Origin: a virus
Taxonomy: Duplodnaviria; Caudoviricetes
Strand: one strand, 5' to 3'
DNA length: 64,000 nucleotides
Virus record (IMG/VR): IMGVR_UViG_3300033120_000864
Coordinates: 32,001 to 96,000 of that record
Shown: positions 713-18,158 of the stretch, one piece after another
Position numbering within the stretch: the stretch's first letter is position 1
Layout of the letters: each line of letters opens with the position of its first letter
The notes under the pieces: generated by a model
What the model was told of the DNA's origin: nothing
Databases searched by the model: none
Seen by the model: the letters and a program-made list of their open reading frames with translations, nothing else
Made by a program: the position numbers and the translations under genes

Positions 713-1714
713 ATGAAATTTACTACAAAAAACACAGAATCTCTGCACAATGAAATATACAAGTTAGTCAAACCAAAAGACATATTCATGTACTATTTCC
801 CCTTTGAAGAGAGGAAAATGTATAATTCTCCTTTCAGAAAAGATCCAGATCCAAGTTTCAATATAGTCAACAAAGACGGAAATTGGTTCTTTAATGATTT
901 TGGATATAGGGGTGGAGATGCTGTGAAATTTGTAGAATTATTGTTTGGTTTAAACTACTATGGTGCTTGCAACAAGATCAAAAAGGATTTTGGTTTGAGT
1001 GATGTTAAAATAGATGAGCTCCAACAAATTGATTCCTCTATCGAGATAGAGAAAGAAAAAAAGGAATTTAACATTACATTCACTCCAAGACCTTTTACAG
1101 ATCTTGAACTTGACTACTGGAAACAGTTTGATATTTCTAAAGCAGATTTAGAGAAAGAAGAGATTTTTGCTGCTAAGAAGCTTTGGTATAATGATAAAGA
1201 AGTTTATCTATCAGACAAAATTTTAAGATTTATATATAGATACACAAATGATGGAGAAAATTTTAAAAAAAAGATATATACTCCAGAGAGTGAAGATTTT
1301 AAGTGGATTGGTTCAATTTCTCAAAAACATATTGAAGGAATAAATCAATTACCATTTAAAAATGAATCTGTTATTATTCAAAAATCTAGAAAAGATAGAG
1401 TTGTAATGAAAAAAATACATGAAGATGTTATTAATACTCAAAATGAGAATTTTAAGTGTATAACACCAGAACTTACAAGGTTTTTAGATAAACATTATAG
1501 GTATAAGTATATTTTTTGGGATTCTGATTCTGTAGGAGTAGAAGAATGTAAAAAACTTAATGAAAAAGGTTATTTATACTTAAATATTCCTAAAAAGATT
1601 TATGAAGAAACAGGATGTAAAGATGTATCTGATATTATAAAACATTTTGGTACTGAAGAAGGATATGCTATAATAGCATTAGAAATGATGAAAAAAGGTA
1701 TCTCACTAAATTAA
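713..1714 (+). CDS. DNA primase (crAss-type, TOPRIM)
   Basis: SPFRKDPDPSF...FNDFG...GD N-terminus; TOPRIM FWDSDSVG and KDVSD motifs. Confidence 0.85.
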   Translation: MKFTTKNTESLHNEIYKLVKPKDIFMYYFPFEERKMYNSPFRKDPDPSFNIVNKDGNWFFNDFGYRGGDAVKFVELLFGLNYYGACNKIKKDFGLSDVKIDELQQIDSSIEIEKEKKEFNITFTPRPFTDLELDYWKQFDISKADLEKEEIFAAKKLWYNDKEVYLSDKILRFIYRYTNDGENFKKKIYTPESEDFKWIGSISQKHIEGINQLPFKNESVIIQKSRKDRVVMKKIHEDVINTQNENFKCITPELTRFLDKHYRYKYIFWDSDSVGVEECKKLNEKGYLYLNIPKKIYEETGCKDVSDIIKHFGTEEGYAIIALEMMKKGISLN

Positions 1715-1782: not shown

Positions 1783-2379
1783 ATGGAAAAATCAGGAATT
1801 TATCAAATTATTAATCTTCAAACTAGAAAATCCTATATAGGAAGTAGTAAAAATTTACAAACTAGAAAATATCAACATTGGTATAGATTAAAAGCTAATA
1901 TTCATCCAAATCAACATTTACAAAATGCTTGGAATAAGTATACTAAAAATAGTTTTATCTTTATAATACTTGAACAATGTGATATTAATAGTCTATTAAA
2001 TAAAGAACAATACTATATAGATATTTTAAAACCTGAATTTAATATAAGAAAAGAATGTATAAATAATAAAGGGTTTAAACATTCTGAAATTACTAAAATA
2101 GAAATATCTAATACTTCTAAAAAAAGATGGAATGAAAATAGAGAAAAAATGACTGAATGTCTTTATAAACCAATTTTATGTTACAATAAAAAAGGAGAAT
2201 TTATAAAAGAATATAAATCAGTAAAAGAAGCATCTTTAGATATTAAAACTTTTAGTACTAATATAAGCCAAGTTTTAAAAGACAAAAATATATTTGTGAA
2301 AGGATTTCATTTTAAGTATAAAATCAATAATGAGATTATAAAACAAATAGTAATAAGAAGAAAAAGAAAAAGGAATTAA
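1783..2379 (+). mobile_element. Free-standing GIY-YIG homing endonuclease with NUMOD-like C-terminus
   Basis: SGIYQI...SYIGSS...R motif; GFKHSE and EYKSVKEAS motifs; very low GC. Confidence 0.9.
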
Positions 2380-2401: not shown

Positions 2402-2695
2402 ATGAAAAGGAATTTCGGTTTAAATCAAGTGAAGAATACTTGTTCAATGAGAGAATTGACTAGTATGAATCCTGTTATACTTGATGATGATAAGTATACA
2501 GAGAAAGACTTCATGGATGAAGTAAATGCCTACAAGAAAAAGTATAGATTTGATCCTTTTAAGACTATTATTTACAACACTACTTTCTCTGCTGGTCAGA
2601 GAAGGGAACTTGTAAAGAAATTTAGTTTTAAAGAGATTAGCTCATATGTAGGTAATCATCACAGCACTGTTTACATCATGCAAAAAAATGTATAA
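2402..2695 (+). CDS. Hypothetical protein, degenerate GNAT-like; paralog of 2996-3298
   Basis: TCSMREL...IIYNTTF...Q...FKEISSY shared with 2996-3298. Confidence 0.55.
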   Translation: MKRNFGLNQVKNTCSMRELTSMNPVILDDDKYTEKDFMDEVNAYKKKYRFDPFKTIIYNTTFSAGQRRELVKKFSFKEISSYVGNHHSTVYIMQKNV

Positions 2696-2994
2696 TGAAG
2701 AAAGTACTAATAATAGCATTAATTATGCTATCAACAACGATTATACAAGCGAGAACTCTTTATATTCTCAAACTTAATCTAAGACAAATTAGTTATAGTT
2801 TATCTTTATCTAAACAATTTAGAGACTATAGTAATCAAATAGATTTTGAAATTCCAGTGGATAAAGATTATTATGATAAAATGTCTGTTGGCAATGATGT
2901 AACAGATAACTTTAGAATAGGTAGTTTAATATTCAAAGGAAGTTTTGGAAGTTGGAGAATAAAAGTGAAGGAAAAATACACAAAAGAAATATAA
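2695..2994 (+). CDS. Hypothetical exported/membrane-anchored protein
   Basis: Signal-peptide-like N-terminus MKKVLIIALIML; TAATG coupling. Confidence 0.6.
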   Translation: MKKVLIIALIMLSTTIIQARTLYILKLNLRQISYSLSLSKQFRDYSNQIDFEIPVDKDYYDKMSVGNDVTDNFRIGSLIFKGSFGSWRIKVKEKYTKEI

Positions 2995-2995
2995 C

Positions 2996-3298
2996 ATGGA
3001 AGTAGATGAAGTGGCTCACACCTGTTCAATGGCAGAACTAGGAGGAGGCCTTTCTATTGATGATTTTACTTCTCTTGGAGAAAGAGATTTAGATGTCACT
3101 ATAAAAGAAGAAATTTTGTGTAGAAATATAAATATAGATCCTCGAAAGATAAGATGTATTTTATATAACACTAAATTTACCTTCTTACAAAGGCTTTATA
3201 TTCGTATCTTCCATGGTTTTAAGACTATAGGAAGTTATAAAAACAAAAATAATGAAAAGATTTTCATAACAATAAAAAAAGTAAAGTGGGAGGAATGA
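2996..3298 (+). CDS. Hypothetical protein, degenerate GNAT-like; paralog of 2402-2695
   Basis: TCSMAEL...ILYNTKF...Q...GFKTIGSY. Confidence 0.55.
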   Translation: MEVDEVAHTCSMAELGGGLSIDDFTSLGERDLDVTIKEEILCRNINIDPRKIRCILYNTKFTFLQRLYIRIFHGFKTIGSYKNKNNEKIFITIKKVKWEE

Positions 3299-3675
3299 TC
3301 AAACACAACGTAGCAGTATATGGTACACTTCTATCTGGACTATGGAATCATGGTTTATTAGAAGGTTCTAAGTTAATAACTCCAGGACAAACTGCAGAGA
3401 AAATGAAAATGACTGTTAATGTCATTCCTTATGTCTCAAAAAAAGAAGAGATTTCCAGTATTAAAGTGGAAGTATATGAGGTGAATGACTCTATTTTAAG
3501 TGGTTTAGATCACTTAGAAGGACATCCTACTTTTTACAAAAGAGAAAAGGTTGATGTACTAGGAGAAGATGGCAATATTCATAAATGCTGGATTTATTTA
3601 TGTGATGCTTCTACTGATAATATAGTAGAAGATGGTGACTATAAAGGATACAGAACAAAAAAAGGACTAAAATAA
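3295..3675 (+). CDS. Gamma-glutamylcyclotransferase (GGCT/AIG2-like)
   Basis: VAVYGTL...NH, EVYEV...LDHLEGHPTFYKR, WIY; ATG at 3295 overlaps upstream TGA. Confidence 0.9.
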   Translation: MIKHNVAVYGTLLSGLWNHGLLEGSKLITPGQTAEKMKMTVNVIPYVSKKEEISSIKVEVYEVNDSILSGLDHLEGHPTFYKREKVDVLGEDGNIHKCWIYLCDASTDNIVEDGDYKGYRTKKGLK

Positions 3676-4019
3676 TGACAGCACCAGTATTAGTAGAAGA
3701 AAAATTAGATGCAGCATTATTTAGGACTATTATTGATAAAGCTGCTGATAGGGGATTTATGTTTCCTAGAAAAAGCATATTCTTTCTAATAGTATATATT
3801 AGAAGTTGGCTTGAAAGTATAGATATTCATATATCTATAAGAAAAGTTACTATGGGTATTTACAGTGGCAGGTATCAATATGAAGTGAGAAAAGATGGAA
3901 GACCTGTTTATTTAACAAGTCAATATTATTTAACTTCAAAAGATGCTGAAAGAGCTGCTGTTCATGCTATATTGATAGATGAACACAAAAGTTTTTGGAA
4001 TGGTGAAAGAAAAGCTTAA
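3675..4019 (+). CDS. Hypothetical protein
   Basis: Translationally coupled ORF in the operon. Confidence 0.6.
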   Translation: MTAPVLVEEKLDAALFRTIIDKAADRGFMFPRKSIFFLIVYIRSWLESIDIHISIRKVTMGIYSGRYQYEVRKDGRPVYLTSQYYLTSKDAERAAVHAILIDEHKSFWNGERKA

Positions 4020-4695
4020 ACCTTATGTTGAGGAAAGATGGCTTAATTTTATAGCACCAATCTTAGAGTCTTCAAAAATATTACCAACTTTAACAGAAAG
4101 AAAGAGAGTTGCAACAATAGTACCCAAACAGGTAGATATGTTCAATTGCTTTAAGTACACTCCTTTTGATAAAGTTAAAGTGGTTATATTAGGTCAAACT
4201 CCATATCATAGTTTGGTAAATGGAGAACCTGAAGCTCATGGACTTGCTTTTAGTTATAGAAAAAAAGAATTAGATTTTCATGTTCCCCAAAGTTTGGCTG
4301 TCATCAGAAATGAGATAGAAACAGATGTGTATAATGGAGAAATGATAACATTTGATCCTAATCTAGAAAGATGGGCAAAACAAGGTGTTTTATTATTAAA
4401 TACAGCACTGACAACAGAGTTAGGAAGTAAAGATGCTCATATCGAGCTCTGGCAACCTTTCACTGAAGAAGTGATAAAGACATTAAATGAACTTAATTCT
4501 GGTTTGATATTTTGCCTATGGGGTAATCATGCTAAAGGATATGCTCATTTAATAAACAAAAACAATCATATTCTTTCTGCAGGACATCCTGCAAGTGAGT
4601 TATATGGAGGTAAAGGAAGTTTTTATGGATGTAAGCATTTTTCTGCTGTAAACAACATTTTAAAGGGATACAAACAAGAAGAAATAGAATGGTAA
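3979..4695 (+). CDS. ung: Family-1 uracil-DNA glycosylase homolog with catalytic Asp replaced by Thr
   Basis: VKVVILGQTPYH, AHGLAFS, WAKQGVLLLNTALT, FCLWG, GHPAS. Confidence 0.9.
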   Translation: MNTKVFGMVKEKLKPYVEERWLNFIAPILESSKILPTLTERKRVATIVPKQVDMFNCFKYTPFDKVKVVILGQTPYHSLVNGEPEAHGLAFSYRKKELDFHVPQSLAVIRNEIETDVYNGEMITFDPNLERWAKQGVLLLNTALTTELGSKDAHIELWQPFTEEVIKTLNELNSGLIFCLWGNHAKGYAHLINKNNHILSAGHPASELYGGKGSFYGCKHFSAVNNILKGYKQEEIEW

Positions 4696-5408
4696 CAGTT
4701 GAGAATAAAAGTGAAGCATTTACTAAAATATATTTACCTCATATACAAAAGACTATTGATAAAGTAAAAGATTTAGAAATCTTTAAAGATGCTAAATGGA
4801 ATATTCATCATTATTCTAATGTAGGAGGACTATATTTTACTAACAATGAAGATTACTTTAGTTGCAAAGTAAAATTATTTAATGCAATTGAAGATGATTC
4901 AATCTTTTCCAGATTTAACTCAGAATTAGGAGCTTTTACAATATCATGTTTTCCACATTGTTGTGGTGCATGTATTATAACAGCTGATTATGGTTCTTTT
5001 GGTAGATATGGTAAAGATAGAAAATGTGTAGAAGGAGAACCATTCCTTCTATTAGCAATGCATATTGCTGCAAGATATTATAGAAATGCTTTCAATGCAG
5101 ATAGTGAAAGAAATGCTAGTAATCTTAAAGCATATGAAAAATGTGGTTTTACAGTGCTAAATAAATTTGAAGGTAGGCATCAAGCTTCCTTATTTTTAGC
5201 AGGTACACCATTGGTACAAGATGAGAATTATTATTTAAACAAATTGATAAGCCTTTATGGAAAAGAAGAGAGTGGTAGGACAGAAACTCCTACACAGGAT
5301 CAGAATCAGGAGCAGGCATCCCAGCCATCAGAGCCTGAGGAAGTTATTAGCGAGAGTGAAAGTACCAACAGTTTTCAGGTTGGGATCTACAACGCCTTGC
5401 GAAGCTAA
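4689..5408 (+). CDS. GNAT-fold acyltransferase-like protein with CCG motif
   Basis: FPHCCGACI and GNAT-like RNASNLKAYEKCGFTVL; acidic tail overlaps next gene. Confidence 0.5.
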   Translation: MVTVENKSEAFTKIYLPHIQKTIDKVKDLEIFKDAKWNIHHYSNVGGLYFTNNEDYFSCKVKLFNAIEDDSIFSRFNSELGAFTISCFPHCCGACIITADYGSFGRYGKDRKCVEGEPFLLLAMHIAARYYRNAFNADSERNASNLKAYEKCGFTVLNKFEGRHQASLFLAGTPLVQDENYYLNKLISLYGKEESGRTETPTQDQNQEQASQPSEPEEVISESESTNSFQVGIYNALRS

Positions 5409-6057
5409 AGTAGAAATAAATTCTATTGAAGCTGTACAGAATAGTTCTTCAAAAATGAGAATGAAAAAATGTTTTGCAGAAGGAAAAGTTCGTACTGCTG
5501 AATACTTTACAGCTAAAGATGTTAAGGAATTAACAACTCAAGCTGCTAAGATAACAGGAGGATGGAAAAGCAAACTTGTTTGTAAAAGCTTTTTTGGTTC
5601 AAGAGGTAGAGGTAATTATCTTATAGATAATGAGGCTAAACTTATTGAGTGGACTAAGGGTAAGGACTTATCAGGATATGTATATGAAAGGTTTTATAAT
5701 TTTACAAAAGAATATAGACTTCATGTTACAGAAGATGGTTGTTTTTACACATGTAGAAAACTTCTTAAGGAGGGTACTCCTGAACAAAATAAATGGTATA
5801 GAAATGATTCCAACTGTGTTTGGATATTAGAAGAGAATCCCTCTTTCGATAAACCAAAGAATTGGAAAGATATAGAAACAGAATGTGTAAAAGCATTAAA
5901 AGCTGTAAAGCTTGATGTTGGTGCATGTGATGTAAAAGTTTCTAAAGATGGTGAGTTTATTGTGATTGAAATTAATTCTGCTCCTTCTTTAGGAGAAATA
6001 ACCTTACAAAAATATTTGGAGACTATACCTAAATTAGTTAACAAAAAAGTAGGGTAA
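5257..6057 (+). CDS. ATP-grasp amide/peptide ligase (RimK/YheC-like)
   Basis: K-SFFGSRGRG loop, KEYRLHV, GACDV, IVIEINSAPSL. Confidence 0.88.
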   Translation: MEKKRVVGQKLLHRIRIRSRHPSHQSLRKLLARVKVPTVFRLGSTTPCEAKVEINSIEAVQNSSSKMRMKKCFAEGKVRTAEYFTAKDVKELTTQAAKITGGWKSKLVCKSFFGSRGRGNYLIDNEAKLIEWTKGKDLSGYVYERFYNFTKEYRLHVTEDGCFYTCRKLLKEGTPEQNKWYRNDSNCVWILEENPSFDKPKNWKDIETECVKALKAVKLDVGACDVKVSKDGEFIVIEINSAPSLGEITLQKYLETIPKLVNKKVG

Positions 6058-6753
6058 ATGGGGCATAGAGTTCACGCAGATTTATATAACAAAGATGGTA
6101 AAGTAATTACTTCTGTAAGAAATGGAGCTTGTGATAGTGGAATAAATCCATTTAGACATCATGCAGCAGTAAAATGGGTAAGATATATCGAAGTAAAGAA
6201 TTGTAAATACTCAGCTAAAGAAGTTAAAGCTTGGGTAGATTTTTGTACAAGATGTGGTTTTAAATCTTATCTTAGCCTAAAAGAACAGGAAGTAAAAACA
6301 GGATATGGTGGAAGAGCTGATTCCAAATGTTATAGTATCACTCTACTGAGAAAAGATTATAAAAATGATTTACATCTTTTTATAGCTGGTACTTTAATAA
6401 GAATGATTAGTTATGATATATATCCTTGTTACCAGGAAATTCCAAAGGTTGTTTTTAATATGAAAGATTTAAAGAAGGCAACTTCTTTAGAAAAACTCAT
6501 ATTAGCACATTATGGAATAAAGCAAAATGTACATGGATACCATGGATTATTCTATACAGGAGCTGGTTATAATGTTTGGAAATTACAAAAGTTTTCAGAT
6601 TTAAAATTAACTGGTGGTAGTATTAATGCAGTATTTCAGGTTCCTTTAAAAGGTATTACTAATAAAAAAGTAAGAGCTTTAATGGATACTAAAAAGTACA
6701 AAGAAGCTTATGCATTATTAAAATCAAAAGAAAAAGAAGATGCAAAAGGTTGA
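6058..6753 (+). CDS. Cys-containing hypothetical protein; tandem paralog of 6740-7420
   Basis: Shared KDGKV...CD...KWVRY...CKY...TRCGFK...CY...KDY blocks. Confidence 0.75.
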   Translation: MGHRVHADLYNKDGKVITSVRNGACDSGINPFRHHAAVKWVRYIEVKNCKYSAKEVKAWVDFCTRCGFKSYLSLKEQEVKTGYGGRADSKCYSITLLRKDYKNDLHLFIAGTLIRMISYDIYPCYQEIPKVVFNMKDLKKATSLEKLILAHYGIKQNVHGYHGLFYTGAGYNVWKLQKFSDLKLTGGSINAVFQVPLKGITNKKVRALMDTKKYKEAYALLKSKEKEDAKG

Positions 6754-7420
6754 TTTAGACATAGTTGACAAAGATGGAAAAGTTTTAAGAGAAATCAGAT
6801 ATGATGTTTGTGATGCTAGAGCTAGACTTTCTCAATATCCATTAGGATATAAATGGGTCAGATATGTTATAATCAAAGACTGTAAGTATAACGATGATGA
6901 AATTAGGAGATGGTGTAATTTTGTTACTAGATGTGGCTTCAAATGTCATTTTAGTAATGAAATAGTTAGACCACAAGTGTTTTCTAGTTTTGGAAAAAAT
7001 GAAGCAACAGATTGTTATACTATTACATTATATCCTAAAGATTATAATAATAACGATATGCATTTCTTAATAGGAAATACAGTTGTTAGAATGATTAATT
7101 TTGATGAATGTTTAGAAAACATTCCTAAAATAGTTGAAGAGATTAACATAAGAATGAATCCTCTTCAAAAATTATTGTTAGCTTGTTATACTCTACCATC
7201 TTCAAATCATGCACCTGCTAATAAAAATTTATATAATTATGATATACATAGATATGAAACTCGTCCTTATAAACTACTAAAAACTAAAGAGTTTGTAATA
7301 AAGGATGGAGTACAGAAATCAATGTCTATACCATTATTAGGTAAAAATTTAGAAACAGTGATGAAATCAATAAACGAAAAAGATTACAAAACAGCGTACA
7401 ATTATTTAAATGGAAAGTAA
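6740..7420 (+). CDS. Cys-containing hypothetical protein; tandem paralog of 6058-6753
   Basis: Same blocks as 6058-6753. Confidence 0.75.
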   Translation: MQKVDLDIVDKDGKVLREIRYDVCDARARLSQYPLGYKWVRYVIIKDCKYNDDEIRRWCNFVTRCGFKCHFSNEIVRPQVFSSFGKNEATDCYTITLYPKDYNNNDMHFLIGNTVVRMINFDECLENIPKIVEEINIRMNPLQKLLLACYTLPSSNHAPANKNLYNYDIHRYETRPYKLLKTKEFVIKDGVQKSMSIPLLGKNLETVMKSINEKDYKTAYNYLNGK

Positions 7421-8048
7421 GAAAGTATATGTAGTGGGAGGAAGTAATGGCTACGCAAATTGGCTAATTGAAATGGGTATGGAACTAACAAAAGTCCCAG
7501 AAGAAGCTGATATTGCAATGTTCACAGGAGGTGCAGATATCAACCCTGCTATATATGGAGAAAAACCAGGTAGTAGAACATACTTCTATGATACTAGAGA
7601 TAGAATGGAATTAGAAGCCTATAGAACCTTTAGGGAGCTCGAAACTCCTATGATAGGTATCTGTAGAGGTGGACAACTTTTTACTGCCTTAAATGGTCAT
7701 AAATTAGTTCAACATAGTAGCCATCCATACAGCCACAATGTGGTAACAAACAGAGGAGAACTGTACAGTATAAACTCAATGCATCACCAACAATTTCTTC
7801 TTGATGAAGATAACAAGAATTATGAGTTGATTGCATGGGCTGAAAACATATCAGATGTCCATTTAGATGGAGATGATGTGGACTATAATTTCCCAAAAAC
7901 ATACAAAGAACCAGAAGTGGTGTATTATCCAGAAACAATGTGTTTAGCAATACAATGTCATCCTGAAGCAATTCATAATGTCAGGACAATGGATTACTTC
8001 AAGAGTCTGGTAAATCAATATTTAATAAAAGAAAAAATAACAGCTTAA
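7410..8048 (+). CDS. Class I glutamine amidotransferase / peptidase C26 (gamma-glutamyl hydrolase-like)
   Basis: FTGGADINPAIYG, RD..E, GICRGGQ nucleophile elbow, NSMHHQ, QCHPE. Confidence 0.92.
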   Translation: MESKKVYVVGGSNGYANWLIEMGMELTKVPEEADIAMFTGGADINPAIYGEKPGSRTYFYDTRDRMELEAYRTFRELETPMIGICRGGQLFTALNGHKLVQHSSHPYSHNVVTNRGELYSINSMHHQQFLLDEDNKNYELIAWAENISDVHLDGDDVDYNFPKTYKEPEVVYYPETMCLAIQCHPEAIHNVRTMDYFKSLVNQYLIKEKITA

Positions 8049-8050
8049 AA

Positions 8051-9919
8051 ATGGATTTATTTGAAATAGGAAATTATATAATAGGTTTCGTACTACTTAT
8101 GTATGCCTTTAATACCACATTACAAATGATGTTTGGATTGACACCAGACAGAAGTAATTTTTATTGTGGTTTATATGGCTTTAATGGAGCCAAAGCTCCA
8201 AATGAGGACAAACTCAAAATATTAGGTATGTATAACCTACCAAGAGGAGATGATTCTTGTGGAATTTATTGGGATGGTAAACTCTACAAAGGAGTAAACC
8301 TTGAATCAAATGTACTTCGTTTCTATGAAAAAAATACATTTAAGCCAATAAAGGAAAAATTCACTGTCATTGGACATAATAGAAAATCAACAGTTGGAAA
8401 GAATGAAATTGACAATTGCCATCCCTTTGGATATTGGTTAGATGGGGATACATCTAAGATTCCTTATGCAGTTGGTGCTCATAATGGTACAATTAGAAAT
8501 AGAGAAGAACTAAAAAAGAAGTATGATGCAACTCCACATGTTGTGGATTCTGCAGAAATACTTGAAATCATTATTAATAGCAAATCTAAACCTAAAAATA
8601 TAAGTGTTCTTGAAGAATATGAAGGTTTTGGTGCATTTATGTGGAGTTTTCCTGAAACAGATGATTTATATATCTTTAGAGGTAAATCTGAACAAGGTGA
8701 AGACCTTACAGGAGAAAGACCTTTATTCTATTGGAAGAAGGCTGGAGAAGATATGGTATATATTTCTTCAATAAAAGACTCTCTTTTAGCTATATGTGAT
8801 GATGATGAAAAAATAATAAGAGAGTTTGAACCAAACAGAATACATCATATTAAAGCAGGTAAGATGATGACTTACAAAAAAGAATATGATAGATCTGCAA
8901 GGAATAAGACTACTACATATGCTTCTAGTAGTTCATCTTCTACAACAAGTTCTGTTGCAACAACTTCAAATGTAGGAAATGGTATTGCCACCACATTTGG
9001 ACCAAAGAAAAAGGGAGCTTCGGAGATCTTCCTAAATTTCCCGAAGTCAGCTCTAGAAAAGTACGAAAAAAAAAGTCATCCAAGGGAAAACAATGGGGAC
9101 GCTTTTCTAGAAACTGAACCTTATATTGATGTTAATGAACTTATTAGAATAACTAATAATAAGGACTTTAAAGGCAAAATCATTTATTGTGGAGGACAGT
9201 ATAGAAAGAATGGTCACATCTTAGGTGCTAAATTGAAAGAAGGTGAAGTTCTTAAGATTGATGCTAATGGATATTTAGCAGGTCATAAGAACTATGATAA
9301 TAAGACTAGCAAAGAATTCTATTTCTGGAATGGTTGGACATGTCTTTCTCATGAAAGTATGACAAAGGTGATAAAAATGTTTAAGGATGGAAGTATATTT
9401 GATGAGCATGTTAAAACAAGATTTTGCTTATATAAATTACAACCTTTCTTTGATTGTATCATCTTTAATCCTGGTGTTCCTAATGGACATTATTCTATGG
9501 GAAGACAAATGGGAGGCAATCCTCAACCTTATCATACTGGTAAGTTTGAACCTTTATTTAATCAAGGCAAAATTTATTTCTTTAATAATGGATATTTTAA
9601 ATCTGTAGTTCTTCAATTAGAACCATTTATGAAATTAGATCCTAGTAAAGCATTAGTAGAAATAAGTGCAGCTGAGATAGAAAAAAAGGAAAAGAAGGAA
9701 GCATCTGAAGCTGAGAAAGAAACATTACAGGCTTTTTATAACGATGCTATGGAAAACCTTAATGTTAGCAAAGGAATGTTTGAAGAACCAGTGGAGTTCA
9801 AATCAAACGAAGCAACAAGAATAAAAATGTACAAATGGCTTAATGAGAGCTACATTTATTTGAAGGATCATTATGAACATTTGACAAAGAAAAAATTACC
9901 TGAAGAAATATTATATTGA
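8051..9919 (+). CDS. Class II (Ntn) glutamine amidotransferase with N-terminal propeptide and large C-terminal extension
   Basis: CGLYGF at residue 39, RGDDSCG, GHNRKSTVG, NCHPF, HNGTI, VDS. Confidence 0.85.
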   Translation: MDLFEIGNYIIGFVLLMYAFNTTLQMMFGLTPDRSNFYCGLYGFNGAKAPNEDKLKILGMYNLPRGDDSCGIYWDGKLYKGVNLESNVLRFYEKNTFKPIKEKFTVIGHNRKSTVGKNEIDNCHPFGYWLDGDTSKIPYAVGAHNGTIRNREELKKKYDATPHVVDSAEILEIIINSKSKPKNISVLEEYEGFGAFMWSFPETDDLYIFRGKSEQGEDLTGERPLFYWKKAGEDMVYISSIKDSLLAICDDDEKIIREFEPNRIHHIKAGKMMTYKKEYDRSARNKTTTYASSSSSSTTSSVATTSNVGNGIATTFGPKKKGASEIFLNFPKSALEKYEKKSHPRENNGDAFLETEPYIDVNELIRITNNKDFKGKIIYCGGQYRKNGHILGAKLKEGEVLKIDANGYLAGHKNYDNKTSKEFYFWNGWTCLSHESMTKVIKMFKDGSIFDEHVKTRFCLYKLQPFFDCIIFNPGVPNGHYSMGRQMGGNPQPYHTGKFEPLFNQGKIYFFNNGYFKSVVLQLEPFMKLDPSKALVEISAAEIEKKEKKEASEAEKETLQAFYNDAMENLNVSKGMFEEPVEFKSNEATRIKMYKWLNESYIYLKDHYEHLTKKKLPEEILY

Positions 9920-11505
9920 AAATGATTGAAATTAGTGGAAAATTATTAATGGTAACTACTATAACAGGTGATACAGTGCTAAGAAAAGACTGTATACAAA
10001 ATAAAGAGACAGGAAAGTATTATCAAAAGAATGTATCAGCTTTTTTAGTAGAGCTTGAAGATGGTAGACAAAAGTGGCAGAGGATAGATAATGGAAGAGT
10101 GGCCTTCAATTGGGATAGAAAAGAATGGGATCTCATTAAAAGACTTGAAGTGTCAGGCTTAACCAAGGGTATCTTTGAAGCTGGAAAACCAGCTGGCTAT
10201 TTTACCATGAATGATGATACAGTACTTCTGAAAGAGAAGATAGGAACCTCACAAGGAACTCCTTGTATCAATGCTAAAGTGGCTACAGAATCTGGATATA
10301 TTCCTTCTATCTGGGATGATTGTTTCTATAATAAGAGAAATCTTAATAGAGATGATTTAGAGTATTTAAGAACTCCTCAGATAGTAAAGTATAGGAATCT
10401 TGACTTTAGGTATAATGCTGCTGCTGATAACAGCTCATTTCTTAAAATAAGAGGTTTTTATGATAAGTTTCAACCTGCTGTACCTATGAGAACTCAAGAA
10501 GTATCAAAATTACTTTTTGGAAAATCATTTGGTATAGAATTTGAAACAAGAGGTGGTACAATTCCAGAAAAATTCCTTGGTAAACTTGGTATAGTTCCAT
10601 TGAAAGATGGATCTTTAAGACTTCCTGATGGAAAGGAGCCTTATGAATATACTACAGTGCCATTTTATGGTGCTAAAGGATTGGAAACTGTTAAATACAT
10701 TTGTGAAGAATTAAATAAAAGATGTATATTTGATGATAATTGCTCTTTACATGTGCACTTAGGAAATGTAAAATTTGATAAATTGTCTATTATTGCATAT
10801 TATATTCTTATTCAAAATATTCAAGAGGAATTATATTCTATATTTCCTCAGTATAAGAGAGATGAAGTGAAGTATTTAAATAAGCCAAAAGCTTATAATG
10901 CTCCTCTTCCAAATATAGGTCTATTAACAAATAGTATCTATAAGAAAAAGTATACATCACATCATGAATTTAATGCTGAAGTAGACTCTTCTTTCTCTAA
11001 AATTATAGAATATTTAACTAAGGGAGGTACTAAAGAATGGCCAGGTTGGGATTCTGATAGACCAACACATCCTCTTGGTAATACAAAATGGAATCTTAAC
11101 AGATACTTTCTTGTAAATATAAATAGTTTAGTATTTAGTTCTACACGTACTATTGAATTTAGGCTTTCAAGTCCAACATTTAATTTTACTAAAGTAACTA
11201 ACTGGCTTTTTATATGTGCTGCTATAATTACCTATGCTGAAAAGTATAGTAAAGAAATCATAAGTAGAAAAGCAAAACCAACTCTGAAGGATATTCTTTC
11301 AGAACTGAAAACACACTTTGGTTATTATGAGTTTGAAGATGTGGTAGGTAGTGAAATATCTTCATATCTGTGTGACTATGTTGACTATAGAAAAGAACTA
11401 ATTGCAAAAGCCACAAAAAATGGTGATGTATTAGCTAATAATATAGAATTCAAAGCAGACAAAGACTTCAGATTCCAGAGTAGAAACATGTCAACTATCT
11501 ACTAA
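9916..11505 (+). CDS. Putative amidoligase (COOH-NH2 ligase, glutamine-synthetase fold)
   Basis: FGIEFET, DGSL, YEYTT, CSLHVH, RY..VN, TIEFR. Confidence 0.85.
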   Translation: MKMIEISGKLLMVTTITGDTVLRKDCIQNKETGKYYQKNVSAFLVELEDGRQKWQRIDNGRVAFNWDRKEWDLIKRLEVSGLTKGIFEAGKPAGYFTMNDDTVLLKEKIGTSQGTPCINAKVATESGYIPSIWDDCFYNKRNLNRDDLEYLRTPQIVKYRNLDFRYNAAADNSSFLKIRGFYDKFQPAVPMRTQEVSKLLFGKSFGIEFETRGGTIPEKFLGKLGIVPLKDGSLRLPDGKEPYEYTTVPFYGAKGLETVKYICEELNKRCIFDDNCSLHVHLGNVKFDKLSIIAYYILIQNIQEELYSIFPQYKRDEVKYLNKPKAYNAPLPNIGLLTNSIYKKKYTSHHEFNAEVDSSFSKIIEYLTKGGTKEWPGWDSDRPTHPLGNTKWNLNRYFLVNINSLVFSSTRTIEFRLSSPTFNFTKVTNWLFICAAIITYAEKYSKEIISRKAKPTLKDILSELKTHFGYYEFEDVVGSEISSYLCDYVDYRKELIAKATKNGDVLANNIEFKADKDFRFQSRNMSTIY

Positions 11506-11533: not shown

Positions 11534-11941
11534 TTGTCTCAAAAAAAGACGAAACAAAAAAAAGCTGCTGTGCTAAAGCCTTATAATAGTGGAACTATGA
11601 CTAAAGCAGCGTTCTTTGGGAAGATTAGGAGTGGGCTTAGGAATACCTTCAGATATTGGAAACCAATGTATGAAGCTCTTAAGCTTGCTTCTAGGCCTTC
11701 TCAGAGTAATAATAAAAGGCTAAAAACAGAATATAAGTGTGCTCATTGTAAAAAATGGTCTAAAAGAGCAGATGTTCAGATAGATCATATTATAGAATGT
11801 GGCAGTTTGAAAGATTGGGATGATGTGGTGCCATTTATTCAGAGACTAACAGTTGAAGATGTAAATAGCTACCAGGTATTGTGTAAGAAATGCCATGTTA
11901 TCAAGACAAAAAAGTATAAGGAGGAAAAGAACAATGAATAA
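11534..11941 (+). CDS. HNH endonuclease
   Basis: CAHC...QIDHI...N.QVLCKKCH..KT. Confidence 0.85.
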   Translation: MSQKKTKQKKAAVLKPYNSGTMTKAAFFGKIRSGLRNTFRYWKPMYEALKLASRPSQSNNKRLKTEYKCAHCKKWSKRADVQIDHIIECGSLKDWDDVVPFIQRLTVEDVNSYQVLCKKCHVIKTKKYKEEKNNE

Positions 11942-12917
11942 CTTTGATAATAGATCTCTGTCATTTTCTACACTAAAATATCTACAAGAAGGGCCATCTT
12001 TATTTAGAGCTATGCTCAATAAGAAATTTGAGAGTGAAGGACTAACTATTGGTAGTATTGTGGATGTGTTACTAACAGATCCAGAAAGATTTGCAACAGA
12101 TTTTCTTTTGAAAAAAGGAGTTGCTCCAACAGGCATGATGGAAAAGTATGTTTACTATCTAATTAATGTTTGTGTTTCAAGAGGAGATAGCACTTTAACA
12201 GATGAAGATTTTAACAAGGCTTATAACTATTCTGCTTTTAAAATTTCTAAGGATACTATAAAAGAAAGATTTGAGAAGGAATTCTCAGATTATCACAAGG
12301 AAATTGTAGAACAGAAAAAAGGAAAAAAGACACTATATACTCAAGAAGATTATGATATTGCTATAAGAGTTGTGGACTCACTTAATAGTAATCCACATAT
12401 ATCTCAATGCTTTAGAAAAGAAGGTAATCAAGATGTGTTTCAGCAATTAAAAATTGAATGGGTATATAAAGGACTAAATCTAAAATCAATTTTAGACTTA
12501 GTCAAAATAGACTATGACAAGAAAACAGTTGTTATCTATGATATAAAGACTACAGGATACTCTGTAAATTCCTTCAAGGATTCTATAGAAAAGTATCAAT
12601 ATTGGCTTCAAATGGTAATGTATGGAATGGCAGTTTATTCTTATTTTAAGACTGAAGTGCCTGATATAGAAAGTTATGATGTCAAGTTTAAGTGGATTGT
12701 AGAATCTACTAAATATCCAGGAAGTCCTTGTATTTATACAATGTCTAAAAAGGATGAAGAGGCAGGACTTAATGGTGGTAAAATTGGCAATAAGTATTAT
12801 AAAGGTTTTATAGAACTTATTGATGATTACTTGTGGTATGTAGAGAATAACGAGTGGAATACTAGAAAAGATATAGTGACGAATAACTTTGAAGTTGATA
12901 TAAGTATATTCAATTGA
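11934..12917 (+). CDS. PD-(D/E)XK exonuclease (RecE/exonuclease VIII-like)
   Basis: LSFSTLK, GSIVD, KSILD...YDIKTT...Y..QM..Y; ATG 11934 preferred over 11895. Confidence 0.8.
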   Translation: MNNFDNRSLSFSTLKYLQEGPSLFRAMLNKKFESEGLTIGSIVDVLLTDPERFATDFLLKKGVAPTGMMEKYVYYLINVCVSRGDSTLTDEDFNKAYNYSAFKISKDTIKERFEKEFSDYHKEIVEQKKGKKTLYTQEDYDIAIRVVDSLNSNPHISQCFRKEGNQDVFQQLKIEWVYKGLNLKSILDLVKIDYDKKTVVIYDIKTTGYSVNSFKDSIEKYQYWLQMVMYGMAVYSYFKTEVPDIESYDVKFKWIVESTKYPGSPCIYTMSKKDEEAGLNGGKIGNKYYKGFIELIDDYLWYVENNEWNTRKDIVTNNFEVDISIFN

Positions 12918-14396: not shown

Positions 14397-16349
14397 TTGG
14401 ATTTTAAATTAGATGCTGGCTTTATAAAGCAGTATGAGAGTAAGAAAGTGAATTTTGGTTTTAATGGGCTTGGTGAGATAACTTACTATAGAACCTATTC
14501 AAGACTAAAAGAAGATGGAACAAATGAAAAGTGGTTTGAGACAGTCGCAAGAGTTGTCAATGGTATATACAATATACAGAAAACCCATATTGAAAAGAAT
14601 GATTTAGGATGGAATGAGAGAAAGGCTCAGGTCTCTGCACAGGAAATGTATGATAGGATATTTACTTTTAAATTCCTACCACCTGGCAGAGGACTTTGGG
14701 CATGTGGAACAGACATTATAAAGAAGGGACTTGGAGCAGCAATGAATAATTGTGGATTTATCAGTACAGAAAATATTGATAAAGACTTTGCTAAGCCTTT
14801 CTGTTTTATGATGGATATGTCCATGTTAGGAGTTGGTATTGGATTTGATTTAAAAGGTGAAGGAAAAATAGTTGTGGCTGAAAAGTCACCTATGTGTAAT
14901 ACAATTATATATACAATTCCTGATACAAGAGAAGGATGGGTGGAGAGCTTAAAACTTCTTCTTGATTCATACCTTAGTTCTGATTGTAATAATGTAGATT
15001 TTGACTATTCTTTAGTCAGAAAAGCAGGAGAACCAATCAAGACTTTTGGTGGAATCTCATCAGGCCCAGAACCTTTAATCAAACTTCATCAACAAATAAG
15101 AGAAAAACTAAATGGCATTGCAGGAAAAGCAATTACAGGAAGAGTGATTGCTGATATTATGAATATGGTGGGTGTATGTGTTGTTTCTGGTAATGTCAGA
15201 AGAAGTGCACAAATCATGTTTGGTGATTCAAATAACAATGAATATTTAGATCTCAAAAACTACAATGTAAATCCTGAAAGAGCTAACTATGGATGGACTT
15301 CTAATAATAGTGTATTCTGTGATGAACATACAGATTATTTAGGAGCTGCACAAAGAACTGCTATAAATGGAGAACCTGGATATTTCTGGCTTAATAATGC
15401 TAGAAAATATGGTAGGTTTGTAGATCCAGTGAATAATAAGGATTATAAAGCAATGGGATGTAATCCTTGTGCTGAACAAACCTTAGAAAACTATGAATTA
15501 TGTTGCTTAGTAGAAACATTCCCAGATAACCATGATTCTCTTGAGGATTATCTTAAGACACTGAAATATGCTTACTTGTATGGTAAGTCTGTCACTCTAT
15601 TAAAAACACACTGGAAGGAAACTAACAAGGTGTTATTAAAGAATAGAAGAATAGGACTTAGTCAAACAGGTATTGCTCAGTTTCTAGAAAGACATTCCCT
15701 TGAAGAATATAGGGTTTGGTGTAATGAAGGATATAAAACAGTACAGAAATATGATGAAATATATTCTAACTGGTTTTGTATTCCTAAGTCTATTAAAACA
15801 ACATCAATTAAACCTTCAGGATCTATTAGCCTTTTAGCAGGAGCCACTCCAGGTATGCATTATCCAGAGAATAATTATTACATTAGAAGAATAAGAATAG
15901 GAAAGAATTCTCCTATATTGAAAGCTTGTCAAGAAGCTGGATATGTAGTGGAAGTTGATGCTTATGACTCTTCTTCATATTGTGTAGAAATTCCTGTAGA
16001 AATTAATTGTCGTACTGTGGATGATGTTTCAATATGGGAACAAGTACAACTTGCAGCTTTCATCCAAAATTGGTGGGCTGACAATCAAGTGTCATGTACT
16101 GTTACCTTCAAACCAGAAGAGAAGAAAGAAATCTTACCCATACTAAAATATGGAAAGTACAATCTAAAAGCTATTAGCTTCTTGCCAAAAGCAGAAGTTG
16201 GAGCTTACAAACAAATGCCATATGAAGCCATAACTCGTCAGAGATATGAGGAAATAGTAAGAGCAATAACCCCTTTGAATATGGAGAATATTTCACAAGA
16301 CTCTAAACCAGAGCTTTATTGTGATAGTGTTAGCTGCGAAATAAAATAA
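14397..16349 (+). CDS. nrdJ: Class II (B12-dependent, monomeric RTPR-type) ribonucleotide reductase
   Basis: RTYSR, PPGRGLW, NNC, GNVRRSA, GCNPCAEQ, TSIKPSG, DNQVSCT, C-terminal CDSVSC. Confidence 0.95.
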   Translation: MDFKLDAGFIKQYESKKVNFGFNGLGEITYYRTYSRLKEDGTNEKWFETVARVVNGIYNIQKTHIEKNDLGWNERKAQVSAQEMYDRIFTFKFLPPGRGLWACGTDIIKKGLGAAMNNCGFISTENIDKDFAKPFCFMMDMSMLGVGIGFDLKGEGKIVVAEKSPMCNTIIYTIPDTREGWVESLKLLLDSYLSSDCNNVDFDYSLVRKAGEPIKTFGGISSGPEPLIKLHQQIREKLNGIAGKAITGRVIADIMNMVGVCVVSGNVRRSAQIMFGDSNNNEYLDLKNYNVNPERANYGWTSNNSVFCDEHTDYLGAAQRTAINGEPGYFWLNNARKYGRFVDPVNNKDYKAMGCNPCAEQTLENYELCCLVETFPDNHDSLEDYLKTLKYAYLYGKSVTLLKTHWKETNKVLLKNRRIGLSQTGIAQFLERHSLEEYRVWCNEGYKTVQKYDEIYSNWFCIPKSIKTTSIKPSGSISLLAGATPGMHYPENNYYIRRIRIGKNSPILKACQEAGYVVEVDAYDSSSYCVEIPVEINCRTVDDVSIWEQVQLAAFIQNWWADNQVSCTVTFKPEEKKEILPILKYGKYNLKAISFLPKAEVGAYKQMPYEAITRQRYEEIVRAITPLNMENISQDSKPELYCDSVSCEIK

Positions 16350-16350
16350 G

Positions 16351-16689
16351 ATGCAAAAAGACAAAGTACTAGAGCTAGTTGACCAAAAAGTTAATCAATA
16401 CAAGATCATTAAGAAGATGCAAGAGCAGAATGATCCTAAATATAATCTCATTAAGGCTTGTGAAGAACTAGCTGAGCTTTCTGAAAAACTACTTAAGAAG
16501 GTAGTTAAAGAAGGTACTGATAAGTGTCCCTCAGATGATGATATTATAGAAGAAATAGGAGATGTTCAGATCAGACTTGATCTTTTGGGCCTTATCTTTG
16601 GACAAGATAAAGTTGAGAAAAGAATACAATATAAACTATCAAAATTTGAAGGTTATATGAAAGAAGGAAAGTTTGGGGGAAGAATATAA
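16351..16689 (+). CDS. MazG-like NTP pyrophosphohydrolase
   Basis: EELAEL...IIEEIGDV. Confidence 0.7.
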   Translation: MQKDKVLELVDQKVNQYKIIKKMQEQNDPKYNLIKACEELAELSEKLLKKVVKEGTDKCPSDDDIIEEIGDVQIRLDLLGLIFGQDKVEKRIQYKLSKFEGYMKEGKFGGRI

Positions 16690-16945
16690 GAAACTTGCTC
16701 AAAAAACCAAAGAATTCTGTGATGAAGAATCATTTAGTGAAGAGGAAACTTTTATAATGAGTGGTGATGAATTAAATGATATGAAATTCAACTATTACTA
16801 TGAAGGTATGGAGGCTATGCTTAAGGACCCTGATTTATCAGAGTTCTTAGCAGATACCATTCAATACAAAAAATGTACTAGTAGAATGGGTTTTATGAGA
16901 GAAGTAGAATTAGCTTTAGAAACTTACTTAAAACAAACACGATGA
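16673..16945 (+). CDS. Hypothetical acidic protein
   Basis: ORF coupled to its neighbours. Confidence 0.5.
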   Translation: MGEEYKKLAQKTKEFCDEESFSEEETFIMSGDELNDMKFNYYYEGMEAMLKDPDLSEFLADTIQYKKCTSRMGFMREVELALETYLKQTR

Positions 16946-17136
16946 TGAAAAAGAAACAAATAGTAAAGTTTCTAAAAACTTTAGGAATTGATTATAATGG
17001 ATCTTACAAAATAAGTCCAGGAGAATTTCTAACTATGTATGATAAGTTTTTAGAAAAGGAAAGTAAGAAGAAAGTAAAGGTTAAAAAAACCAATACTAAA
17101 GCTAAAGAGGTAAATGAATATCTCTATTGGGTTTAA
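16942..17136 (+). CDS. Hypothetical basic protein
   Basis: ATGA overlap with upstream gene. Confidence 0.5.
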   Translation: MMKKKQIVKFLKTLGIDYNGSYKISPGEFLTMYDKFLEKESKKKVKVKKTNTKAKEVNEYLYWV

Positions 17137-17162
17137 TTGAAAGTGATTTATACAAATCATAA

Positions 17163-17489
17163 ATGGATTTAAATGAATACCAGATAAAATCTGCTGAAAG
17201 AGCAATATATGGTAATGATATGAAAATTATCTATCCTGCATTAGGACTTGCAAATGAAGCTGGAGAAGTATTAGGTAAAATAAAGAAAGTGCTTAGAGAT
17301 AATAAAGGAGTTTACACTGCTGAATTAAAAGAAGCAATTGCTTTTGAACTTGGAGATACTCTTTGGTATTGTGCTGTTTTAGCTAGAGACATAGATTATG
17401 ATCTAGATACAGTGGCACAAATGAATGTGAACAAACTTGAAGATAGAAGAAAACGTAATGTAATTCATGGATCAGGGGATAATAGATAA
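17163..17489 (+). CDS. mazG: MazG nucleotide pyrophosphohydrolase
   Basis: YPALGLANEAGEV...KK.LRD...ELGDTLWY...NVNKL..R...GSGDNR. Confidence 0.9.
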   Translation: MDLNEYQIKSAERAIYGNDMKIIYPALGLANEAGEVLGKIKKVLRDNKGVYTAELKEAIAFELGDTLWYCAVLARDIDYDLDTVAQMNVNKLEDRRKRNVIHGSGDNR

Positions 17490-17781
17490 ACTTATACCAA
17501 TTGCTGGAACAAACAACAGAGTGGTAATCAAAAGAGATGTTACTGAGGAAAAAACTGGTCTTATAATCCTAGCTGAAGGAGCAAAACAGGCTCCTAATAC
17601 AGGAATAGTAATATCAGTGAGTGAGAAAGATGCAGATGGATATCTTCCAACTGTAAAGAAAGGAGATAGAGTAATGTTTAATCCTGCACAATATATAGGA
17701 ATTCCTCTTCTCAAAAACAAAGACGTAGACATTTTTACAACAATAGAAAAGGATATTTTCTTAAAATTTCCAAATGAGTAA
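17467..17781 (+). CDS. groES: Co-chaperonin GroES
   Basis: NRVVIKR..TEEKTGLIIL...G.VISV...VKKGDRVMF...EKDI. Confidence 0.8.
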   Translation: MDQGIIDKLIPIAGTNNRVVIKRDVTEEKTGLIILAEGAKQAPNTGIVISVSEKDADGYLPTVKKGDRVMFNPAQYIGIPLLKNKDVDIFTTIEKDIFLKFPNE

Positions 17782-17953
17782 AGCAGAAAAAAGTACAGAG
17801 CTTCTTCAAAAAGTATTAATGGATGAACTTCCAGAAATAGAGAGAGATGAAGAAATCTACAATTATCTTAAAGACAAAGATCAGGTACCAGAAAATTTCA
17901 TCCCTTATTGGGAAGAAGATGATGATGACTTTAACATAAAAGAACAACTATAA
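17774..17953 (+). CDS. Small acidic hypothetical protein (59 aa, absent from ORF track)
   Basis: MSKAEKSTELLQKVLMDELPEIERDEEIYNYLKDKDQVPENFIPYWEEDDDDFNIKEQL*; fills the gap between neighbours. Confidence 0.65.
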   Translation: MSKAEKSTELLQKVLMDELPEIERDEEIYNYLKDKDQVPENFIPYWEEDDDDFNIKEQL

Positions 17954-17954
17954 G

Positions 17955-18158
17955 ATGGAAGAAAAAAACACATGGGAGAGTAATACTGCTCTCCCACAAA
18001 GGAATAGATGTAAAGAATGTGGCAGATTTGTAAAAGGAGGAATGTATAATATATTAATGCATGAATCCACTGTACATAATATGCACTATTATCCTTCAAA
18101 ATACATTACAAGAGATAGACTAGTTGAACATATTAGACATATATTTTGGAATGAATGA
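17955..18158 (+). CDS. Small putative Zn-binding protein
   Basis: CKECG...H..H pattern. Confidence 0.5.
   Translation: MEEKNTWESNTALPQRNRCKECGRFVKGGMYNILMHESTVHNMHYYPSKYITRDRLVEHIRHIFWNE

Follow-up and report, generated by a model that had tools for sequence, protein, structure and literature searches.

Positions 2402-11505 of the 64,000-nucleotide stretch analysed here (the window) hold a copy, rearranged and larger than usual, of the phiEco32/LUZ24-type phage amidoligase system, reportedly predicted in 2009 by Iyer, Abhiman, Burroughs and Aravind (Mol Biosyst 5:1636). The window corresponds to bases 32001-96000 of a 129,807-bp virus record (IMG/VR record IMGVR_UViG_3300033120_000864) rated complete by CheckV; the source genome is a complete 129.8-kb crAss-like phage, with the interval in its replication module. 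Systems of this kind are known, and the architecture here is a variant one. The explanation favoured here, and considered reasonably probable, joins this identity with transient gamma-glutamyl/amide chemistry on a small molecule. Families were assigned to the open reading frames (ORFs) of the window through Pfam, PHROG and NCBIfam profile searches, which gave no family match for 7 of the 13 ORFs in the interval. The genes of the locus are real, with intact catalytic motifs. The genes on which the assignment turns, including those of a second block located upstream, are as follows.

3286-3675, plus strand: GGACT/AIG2-type gamma-glutamyl(amine) cyclotransferase (PF06094 E 9.5e-21, phrog_2520 E 3e-27)
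4689-5408, plus strand: probable GNAT-fold protein of 239 amino acids (aa) with a low-complexity acidic/polar tail (ESM Atlas structural neighbours)
5257-6057, plus strand: RimK/MptN-like ATP-grasp ligase of the alpha-L-glutamate type (phrog_2599 E 9e-34)
6058-6753, plus strand: first paralog of what is here called the B family, with invariant Cys25, Arg115 and His162
6740-7420, plus strand: second B-family paralog (BLASTP E 5e-38 to 6058-6753), the invariant Cys, Arg and His kept
7410-8048, plus strand: Peptidase_C26/class-I glutamine amidotransferase (GATase), "group A" (PF07722 E 2e-14, PF00117 E 4e-8, phrog_7218 E 2.5e-35)
8051-9919, plus strand: class-II (N-terminal nucleophile, Ntn; PurF-type) glutamine amidotransferase, GAT-II (PF13522/PF13537)
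9916-11505, plus strand: Amidoligase_2, a carboxylate-amine ligase of the glutamine synthetase/gamma-glutamylcysteine synthetase (GS/GCS) fold, extended by ~200 aa at its N-terminus (PF12224 E 9e-6, above cut-off; phrog_2443 E 4e-19)
within genome 20805-23537 (L001 8805-11537), ~12 kb upstream: second C26/class-I GATase (G-T-C-L-G, F-H-P-E; Pfam above cut-off)
genome 21654-22505 (L001 9654-10505): PF14395 phiEco32-like COOH-NH2 ligase type 2 (PF14395 E 3e-9)
within genome 20805-23537, after the COOH-NH2 ligase: third B-family copy, 303 aa (hhalign probability 89%, E 2e-6)

The same gene set is found in a range of phages. In LUZ24 the order is gp14 (320 aa)-gp15 (318)-gp16 COOH-NH2 ligase-gp17-gp18 amidoligase-gp19 GAT-II-gp20-gp21 RimK-gp22 GGCT-gp23-gp24 primase/helicase; Kuravirus EcoN5 (gp88-gp76) carries this set, as does UFV-P2 (PMC3890496). 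Phage phi14:2 (NC_021806, g037-g042) has primase-GGCT-ATP-grasp-COOH.NH2 ligase-GAT-II-amidoligase-uracil-DNA glycosylase (UDG), and cr108_1 (NC_055878, gp027-gp035) has primase-80 aa-ATP-grasp-329 aa-300 aa-GATase-COOH.NH2 ligase-GAT-II-amidoligase-UDG-endonuclease-PD-(D/E)XK-ribonucleotide reductase (RNR). Of 50,697 phage records, 304 contain the PF14395 ligase by tblastn. Five metagenomic or IMG/VR relatives (L005, L011/L012, L013, L015), with proteins 45-65% identical to those of the window, share its order: [GGACT]-small protein-UNG-GNAT-like-ATP-grasp-[B]-[C26]-GAT-II-amidoligase-HNH-exonuclease, where UNG denotes a homolog of family-1 UDG. Megablast found nothing in phage records that matches the locus, and single-protein scans of viral contigs together with a word-indexed search (amidoligase, B family and GNAT-like protein) returned the window's own proteins only.

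The initial annotation had proposed an expanded phiEco32-type cluster in a crAss-like Bacteroidota phage. The families are indeed the same, the nearest relatives of the primase and of the cluster proteins are in crAss-like, Cellulophaga and Flavobacterium phages and in Leptolyngbya phage Lbo-JY46, and the copy is enlarged and rearranged; it is not the first of its kind, since phi14:2 and cr108_1 are already annotated. The gene-neighbourhood check that had been suggested showed co-occurrence of the genes in phi14:2, cr108_1, Lbo-JY46, EcoN5, LUZ24 and the five relatives. The host may plausibly belong to the Bacteroidota; by primase and amidoligase, the nearest relative in culture is a phage of a cyanobacterium. 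The interval is not the complete system that it had been taken for, as the COOH-NH2 ligase (35% identical to that of cr108_1), the second C26 enzyme and the third paralog lie ~12 kb upstream. Directly upstream of that block (genome 16186-20325; L001 4186-8325) are genes of PRPP (phosphoribosyl pyrophosphate)-synthetase-like, ADP-ribosylglycohydrolase, endonuclease VII and 511-aa nicotinate phosphoribosyltransferase (NAPRTase) family proteins, and Lbo-JY46 carries PncB- and PrsA-like genes in the corresponding place. We take the NAPRTase/PRPP-synthetase-like block to resemble the phage NAD+ reconstitution pair (NARP1); shared ancestry could explain its adjacency to the module.

The ATP-grasp ligase, GS-fold amidoligase, GGCT, class I GATase/C26 hydrolase and class II Ntn GATase named in the initial annotation are all upheld by the matches listed above, those of the C26 enzyme lying above the Pfam cut-offs. 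The ATP-grasp enzyme is 44% identical to that of phi14:2 and 41% to that of cr108_1, has MptN (2e-10) and rimK_fam (9e-10) as its best NCBIfam matches, and keeps an intact Mg/ATP motif (D-V-K ... V-I-E-I-N-S-A-P). Its ORF, taken from the ATG at 5257, overlaps the preceding gene by 152 nt; because the orthologs align only from residue 34-39, the true start is probably GTG 5356 or TTG 5380. In the amidoligase the motifs G-I-E-F-E, H-V-H and E-F-R are invariant across the ortholog alignment. Degenerate ligase active sites had been named beforehand as evidence against the proposal; they proved intact, with the motifs kept in both enzymes. A tblastn search of phages with the amidoligase gave Lbo-JY46 as best match (E 4e-50) and found phi14:2 and cr108_1 too. 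In the closest 8-kb relative, L005 (5464-7977), a LAGLIDADG endonuclease gene splits the amidoligase into parts of 211 and 328 aa.

GGACT keeps the Y-G-T-L and L-E-G-H-P motifs, and its ortholog in L013, in the same post-primase position, is 58% identical. In the C26 enzyme of 7410-8048 the motifs of the Cys-His-Glu triad are present (G-I-C-R-G-G, C-H-P-E); its identity is 40% with the cr108_1 GATase and 33% with the SNO-type GATase of Lbo-JY46, and its best NCBIfam match, a weak one, is gamma-glutamyl-CDP-amidate hydrolase. GAT-II consists of a 38-aa hydrophobic leader, the nucleophile Cys39, a Ser/Thr-rich linker, a C-terminal domain and an acidic-hydrophobic-Tyr tail. Its gene overlaps that of the amidoligase by 4 nt, and this gene pair is present in every relative. 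The purF and glmS profile matches begin at Cys39, directly before which there is no in-frame start codon. L013 has a homologous leader and phi14:2 has a leader also; the orthologs of L005, L011, cr108_1 and Lbo-JY46 begin M-C. On this pattern the leader is likely a propeptide that would be cleaved to free Cys39.

An AlphaFold2 (AF2) model of the GAT-II C-terminal domain, of low confidence (predicted local distance difference test, pLDDT, 60), has matches in BFVD to the C-terminal portions of GAT-II from cr108_1 (E 3e-5) and phi14:2 (E 1e-3); the same model found no fold in the PDB, only coiled-coil-like rows with VIA (Z<=4) and nothing usable in the Atlas. The tail (9890-9919) ends ...EEILY, and those of orthologs end ...EKLIY, ...ENLIY and ...NALIY. 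Weak profile matches of the domain's acidic helical tail to acyl carrier proteins (E 0.4-0.9) lack significance. Just upstream of the primase, a 194-aa ORF (121-705) for a putative single-stranded DNA-binding protein (SSB) ends ...SGDLVF and its L011 homolog ...EEGSLY; no SSB-like tail was seen at the C-terminus of the annotated GAT-II of Kuravirus EcoN5.

The two proteins encoded at 6058 and 6740 had been described in the initial annotation as degenerate GNAT-like paralogs. They belong to a separate and rare family, represented by 34 clusters among 1.84e9 proteins in an exhaustive HMMER search. Cys25, Arg115 and His162 are invariant in a 27-sequence alignment and are kept in all three copies of this genome. 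The AF2 model of the family is confident (pLDDT 92.3, predicted template-modelling score 0.90). Against the PDB, Foldseek found nothing at E<=0.001 and the best VIA match had Z 6.8 over 76 residues; against the ESM Atlas the template-modelling (TM) score reached at most 0.35. There was no GNAT among the top PDB matches (Foldseek, VIA), and the single GNAT row from the Atlas had TM 0.28. The degenerate GNAT assignment finds no support in this confident model. A cut-down GS-fold ligase was considered and discarded (hhalign against the COOH-NH2 ligase alignment, probability 0.2%), and the likeness to phosphagen kinases and Dop (VIA Z 4.3-5.6) is within noise.

Among predicted viral structures (BFVD) the B model matches a protein of ctelJ1 (E 3e-7, TM 0.63) and, in cr108_1, hyp30 (E 4e-5, TM 0.59) and hyp29 (E 5e-5, TM 0.51). 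These two cr108_1 proteins, one of 300 and the other of 329 aa, are mutual paralogs at E 3e-10. Other matches, all uncharacterised, are in PaP4 (319 aa), GAP52 (290 and 314 aa), CVT22, CW02 and tf. By the length and position of these matches, the B family would be the counterpart of the LUZ24 gp14/gp15-type pair of ~300-aa proteins. Profile comparison of the B family with cr108_1 hyp29 and hyp30 and with EcoN5 gp85 by hhalign gave no sequence signal, so the link is a structural one, and tblastn of the family against phages gave no match. Elsewhere, members of the family adjoin an ATP-grasp gene (L005, L007, L008, L011, L015) or a COOH-NH2 ligase gene (L007), and one lies within a full GGACT-B-C26-COOH-NH2 ligase-...-GAT-II-amidoligase array on a 75.8-kb contig.

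The protein of 4689-5408 probably has a GNAT fold, to go by its predicted structure: its ESM Atlas neighbours are all GNAT acetyltransferases (TM 0.45-0.50, on a weak model with pLDDT 0.61). It has no Pfam, NCBIfam or PDB sequence match, and the motif invariant in the ortholog alignment is T-I-S-C-F-P-x-C-C-G, not the canonical GNAT Q/R-x-x-G-x-G/A. Its description in the initial annotation as GNAT-like can be retained for the structural neighbours and lacks a sequence-level signature; the "three amide-bond-forming folds" counted there depend on this protein and are not sustained. Orthologs occur in all five relatives (L005, L011/L012, L013, L015), always between UNG and the ATP-grasp gene.

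The remaining ORFs of the interval and the genes that flank it are listed here.

713-1714, plus strand: primase (flank, profile match)
1783-2379, plus strand: GIY-YIG endonuclease (flank, profile match)
2402-2695, plus strand: small ORF, 97 aa, paralog of 2996-3298 (T-C-S-M-x-E-L and Y-N-T motifs in common)
2695-2994, plus strand: small ORF, 99 aa, its translation starting with a hydrophobic stretch like a signal peptide
2996-3298, plus strand: small ORF, 100 aa, second copy of the pair, its translation ending ...KWEE
3675-4019, plus strand: conserved small protein, 114 aa (homologs in the same position in L011, E 1e-11, and L013, E 2e-6; no family match)
3979-4695, plus strand: family-1 UNG homolog with GQTPY instead of GQDPY (phmmer E 1e-41 to solved UNG 3tr7)
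11534-11941, plus strand: HNH endonuclease (flank, profile match)
11895-12917, plus strand: PD-(D/E)XK exonuclease (flank, profile match)
14397-16349, plus strand: ribonucleotide reductase (flank, profile match)

The UNG homolog keeps the Tyr, Phe and Asn residues of the pocket and the His motif (G-L-A-F, L-L-L-N, G-H-P-A). Its catalytic Asp is replaced in all four readable genomes of the sub-lineage, by T, A, S and S (GQTPY; GMAPY, GQSPY and GGSPY in the relatives), and the rest of the protein is 53-65% identical across them. In phi14:2 the changes are D>E and H>D; in cr108_1 and in Flavobacterium phage Fpv1 the Asp is intact. The Asp appears to have changed twice independently in three module-bearing crAss-like lineages, which is suggestive in a sample far too small. 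Fpv1, which is without the module, has the primase followed directly by a UDG with intact GQDPY. Since the two genes adjoin there without it, the insertion point of the module was the primase-UNG junction, which the module surrounds in the lineage of the window. UNG itself is a backbone gene and no dedicated member of the cluster; the "altered UDG" of the initial annotation holds as a family-1 UNG with Asp replaced by Thr, its presence reflecting backbone synteny. A protein of the 3675-4019 type (~100 aa) is always found directly upstream of UNG in this sub-lineage.

The ORFs at 2402 and 2996 are weak paralogs, 29% identical over 95 aa (BLASTP E 3e-4). Searches of Pfam, PHROG and NCBIfam gave no match for 2402-2695, and for 2695-2994 there was no family match either. 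None of the three small ORFs at 2402, 2695 and 2996 has a counterpart in L011 or L013, where the primase is followed by GGACT or by the small-protein gene. By their distribution these are insertions specific to the lineage, beside a homing endonuclease, and no conserved part of the system. The Cys-containing paralog pair of the initial annotation is accordingly a pair, weakly supported at E 3e-4, and not a member, being absent from L011 and L013.

Each of the 13 ORFs overlaps the next or lies no more than 2 nt from it (<=2 nt), in keeping with the "one tightly coupled operon" of the initial annotation; the flanking replication genes are packed as tightly, and therefore the packing does not delimit an operon. 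A promoter scan of the cluster did no better than on shuffled sequence, and a terminator scan found no plus-strand terminator bounding the cluster. From base 1 to 31.7 kb the window carries replication and nucleotide-metabolism genes in a co-directional plus-strand array; past 33 kb, giant ORFs (1,947-3,870 aa) typical of crAss-like phages occupy the minus strand. The locus is bracketed by two endonuclease genes, GIY-YIG (1783-2379) and HNH (11534-11941). The 2 kb of 16349-18351 contain no ORF of at least 120 aa on either strand, and a strong terminator-like hairpin is found on the minus strand at 17998-17971. Both genome ends (bases 1-60 and 129748-129807, outside the window) resemble parts of tRNA genes, with T-arm-like GGTTCAACTCC and GGTTCGATTCC; ARAGORN detected no tRNA inside the window.

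In the mechanism proposed, the ATP-dependent ligases would activate carboxylates as acyl-phosphates, which would be joined to glutamate or an amine, or to ammonia drawn from glutamine via the amidotransferases. Gamma/alpha-glutamyl amide or carboxamide intermediates would in this manner be built on a cytoplasmic acceptor, most likely a small molecule. The C26 hydrolases and GGACT would strip the gamma-glutamyl handle as glutamate or 5-oxoproline, so that the gamma-glutamyl group would be a transient carrier or protecting group and not a stable tag. The core of the system would comprise the ATP-grasp enzyme, two GS-fold ligases, GAT-II, GGACT and three B-family copies; two C26/class-I enzymes and the GNAT-like protein would be accessories in this sub-lineage and some others. 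A small acceptor is favoured because of the nearest characterised families, the substrates of GGACT and C26 enzymes and two precedents. At family level only, the ATP-grasp enzyme is nearest to MptN/RimK/CofF, the C26 enzyme to gamma-glutamyl-amide hydrolases and GAT-II to PurF/GlmS (NCBIfam). GGACT and C26 enzymes (PuuD, gamma-glutamyl hydrolase, BtrG) act on small gamma-glutamyl amides, and in the Puu pathway (PuuA, a GS-like ligase; PuuD, C26) and in butirosin synthesis (BtrJ, ATP-grasp; BtrG, GGCT-like) the gamma-glutamyl group serves as a transient handle.

Several points weigh against this explanation. RimK-family enzymes modify proteins too. No close solved relative of the cluster enzymes was found, and their similarities to characterised enzymes are all far below the NCBIfam family cut-offs. 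Core genes vary in close relatives, L011 showing no GGACT and L013 having neither B family nor C26, and it follows from this varying gene content that the accessories are dispensable or interchangeable. A generic small-molecule pathway leaves the constant place beside replication genes unexplained. Finally, the function of the system was still called unexplored in 2023 (PMC10580990), in line with the initial annotation's remark that the product is uncharacterised, and no member's substrate, product or phenotype is established.

That constant place is the starting point of a reading, in our view unlikely, in which the target of the module would be DNA or nucleotides at the replication fork, an amide-type modification or cofactor remodelling protecting phage DNA and the Asp-less UNG with its small neighbour serving as non-cleaving readers or handlers. 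The cluster is always in the replication module, after the primase in crAss-like phages and before the primase/helicase in LUZ24, and phiEco32-like phages are restriction-resistant (PMC11990801), although the BASEL authors ascribe resistance to restriction-modification to another locus (dCTP deaminase, nucleotidyltransferase). Of the three crAss-like lineages that bear the cluster, two have altered catalytic residues in UNG, and these are intact in the cluster-less Fpv1; the UNG of cr108_1 is also intact, however, and backbone synteny accounts for the adjacency. The conserved acidic-hydrophobic-Tyr tail of GAT-II resembles that of the putative SSB-like ORF upstream of the primase, but the likeness is a short motif and acidic-aromatic ends occur in 8 of 163 ORFs. 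Pfam showed no nucleic-acid-binding domain in the cluster enzymes, and neither a ThyA-family hydroxymethylase nor TGT/DpdA was found in the genome, which gave only a weak ThyX match. A bolder form, in which amide modification of DNA, a nucleotide or a cofactor at the fork would underlie the restriction resistance of phiEco32-like phages, with the B family as transferase and the Asp-less UNG as base reader, is quite unlikely.

Rather improbable, too, is that the module amidates or extends cytoplasmic precursors of peptidoglycan or the envelope, in the manner of MurT/GatD or Mur/Ddl, and so blocks superinfection or times lysis. ATP-grasp, GS-like ligase and glutamine amidotransferase folds do serve D-iGlu amidation and peptide-stem synthesis, as textbooks have it, and the hydrophobic leader of GAT-II in the window, L013 and phi14:2 could put the proenzyme at the membrane; that leader is absent from the close relatives L005 and L011. 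A role in the cell wall or envelope is what Iyer et al. proposed on predicting the system in 2009, in the wording of the passage of PMC10580990 that cites them. Yet the cluster has no cell-wall-specific domain, its genes sit with early replication genes and not with lysis or exclusion genes, and the hosts span Pseudomonadota, Bacteroidota and cyanobacteria. The idea of writing and erasing gamma-glutamyl or amide marks, put forward in the initial annotation, is a restatement of the 2009 prediction. Its protein variant, with the ligases adding glutamate or a peptide to a host or phage protein, at its C-terminus or on side chains (as RimK does on S6, or PafA with Pup), and C26 and GGACT reversing this, is very unlikely. 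The RimK-family similarity of the ATP-grasp enzyme suits it, PafA and Dop are by textbook knowledge among the GS-fold ligases, and the ...WEE end of the small ORF 2996-3298 is like a RimK/LysX-type acceptor, but the nearest relatives do not have the small ORF pair, and the small ORFs of other clusters have no common motif. GGACT and C26 enzymes are known, moreover, from small gamma-glutamyl compounds and not from protein-bound tags, and no known tagging system employs a PurF-type amidotransferase. It is exceedingly improbable that the interval is a chance run of independent auxiliary genes in a long co-directional replication array. The packing that continues past the interval, the backbone nature of UNG, the lineage-specific ORFs at 2402, 2695 and 2996 and the part of the system 12 kb away would agree with such a run. 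The ATP-grasp, GAT-II, amidoligase, COOH-NH2 ligase and GGCT genes, in contrast, recur together in unrelated phages with different backbones; this co-occurrence largely refutes a chance run for the core, and the chance-run reading holds only for UNG and the extras at 2402, 2695 and 2996.

The module, predicted in 2009, is among the most widespread phage modules without a known product and is present in at least 304 sequenced phages, among them members of the LUZ24 and phiEco32 groups, podophages from the sea and crAss-like phages. The present genome and its relatives show that the crAss-like lineage has a variable form of it, which is split and has gained C26 enzymes and a GNAT-like gene. New here are the definition of the B family, with its invariant Cys/Arg/His and a confidently predicted fold without solved counterpart; its structural tie to the paired proteins of canonical clusters, which on the models would count these as core; and a corrected membership list that separates true members from backbone genes and baggage. 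This list narrows the candidates in tractable relatives, namely phi14:2 (Cellulophaga), LUZ24 (Pseudomonas) and a BASEL Kuravirus (E. coli).

Compared with known systems, the locus shares with Puu and butirosin a combination of folds, an ATP-dependent ligase with a C26 hydrolase or GGCT-like enzyme; this is an analogy only, with similarity at family level only and no orthology. The UNG homolog is similar to family-1 UNG over its full length (E 1e-41), including the pocket and His motif, and differs in having Thr for the catalytic Asp of GQDPY, where the relatives have Ala, Ser and Ser. Lbo-JY46 (PP438436) gives the best tblastn match for both amidoligase and primase, has both class-I GATase groups and carries a NAPRTase/PRPP-synthetase-like pair directly upstream, as in the upstream block of this genome; its genes, however, are all contiguous, its ATP-grasp protein is of 536 aa and its host is a cyanobacterium. 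With phi14:2 and cr108_1 the genome has in common the Crassvirales-type backbone (primase ... UDG - PD-(D/E)XK exonuclease - RNR) with the cluster after the primase and proteins 27-44% identical, and with cr108_1 also a class-I GATase and a paralog pair. Their clusters are contiguous and end at the UDG, whereas in the lineage of the window the cluster encloses UNG and includes a GNAT-like gene, and the COOH-NH2 ligase gene lies in another place. All five enzyme families (RimK-like ATP-grasp, COOH-NH2 ligase type 2, Amidoligase_2, class-II GATase, GGCT) are encoded in LUZ24 and EcoN5 too, likewise beside the primase, together with a pair of ~300-aa proteins that would have the B-family fold. 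Unlike theirs, the system studied here is in two blocks 12 kb apart with a changed gene order, has three B copies, in a shorter form of ~230 aa, and adds two C26/class-I GATase enzymes, a GNAT-like protein and an embedded Asp-less UNG.

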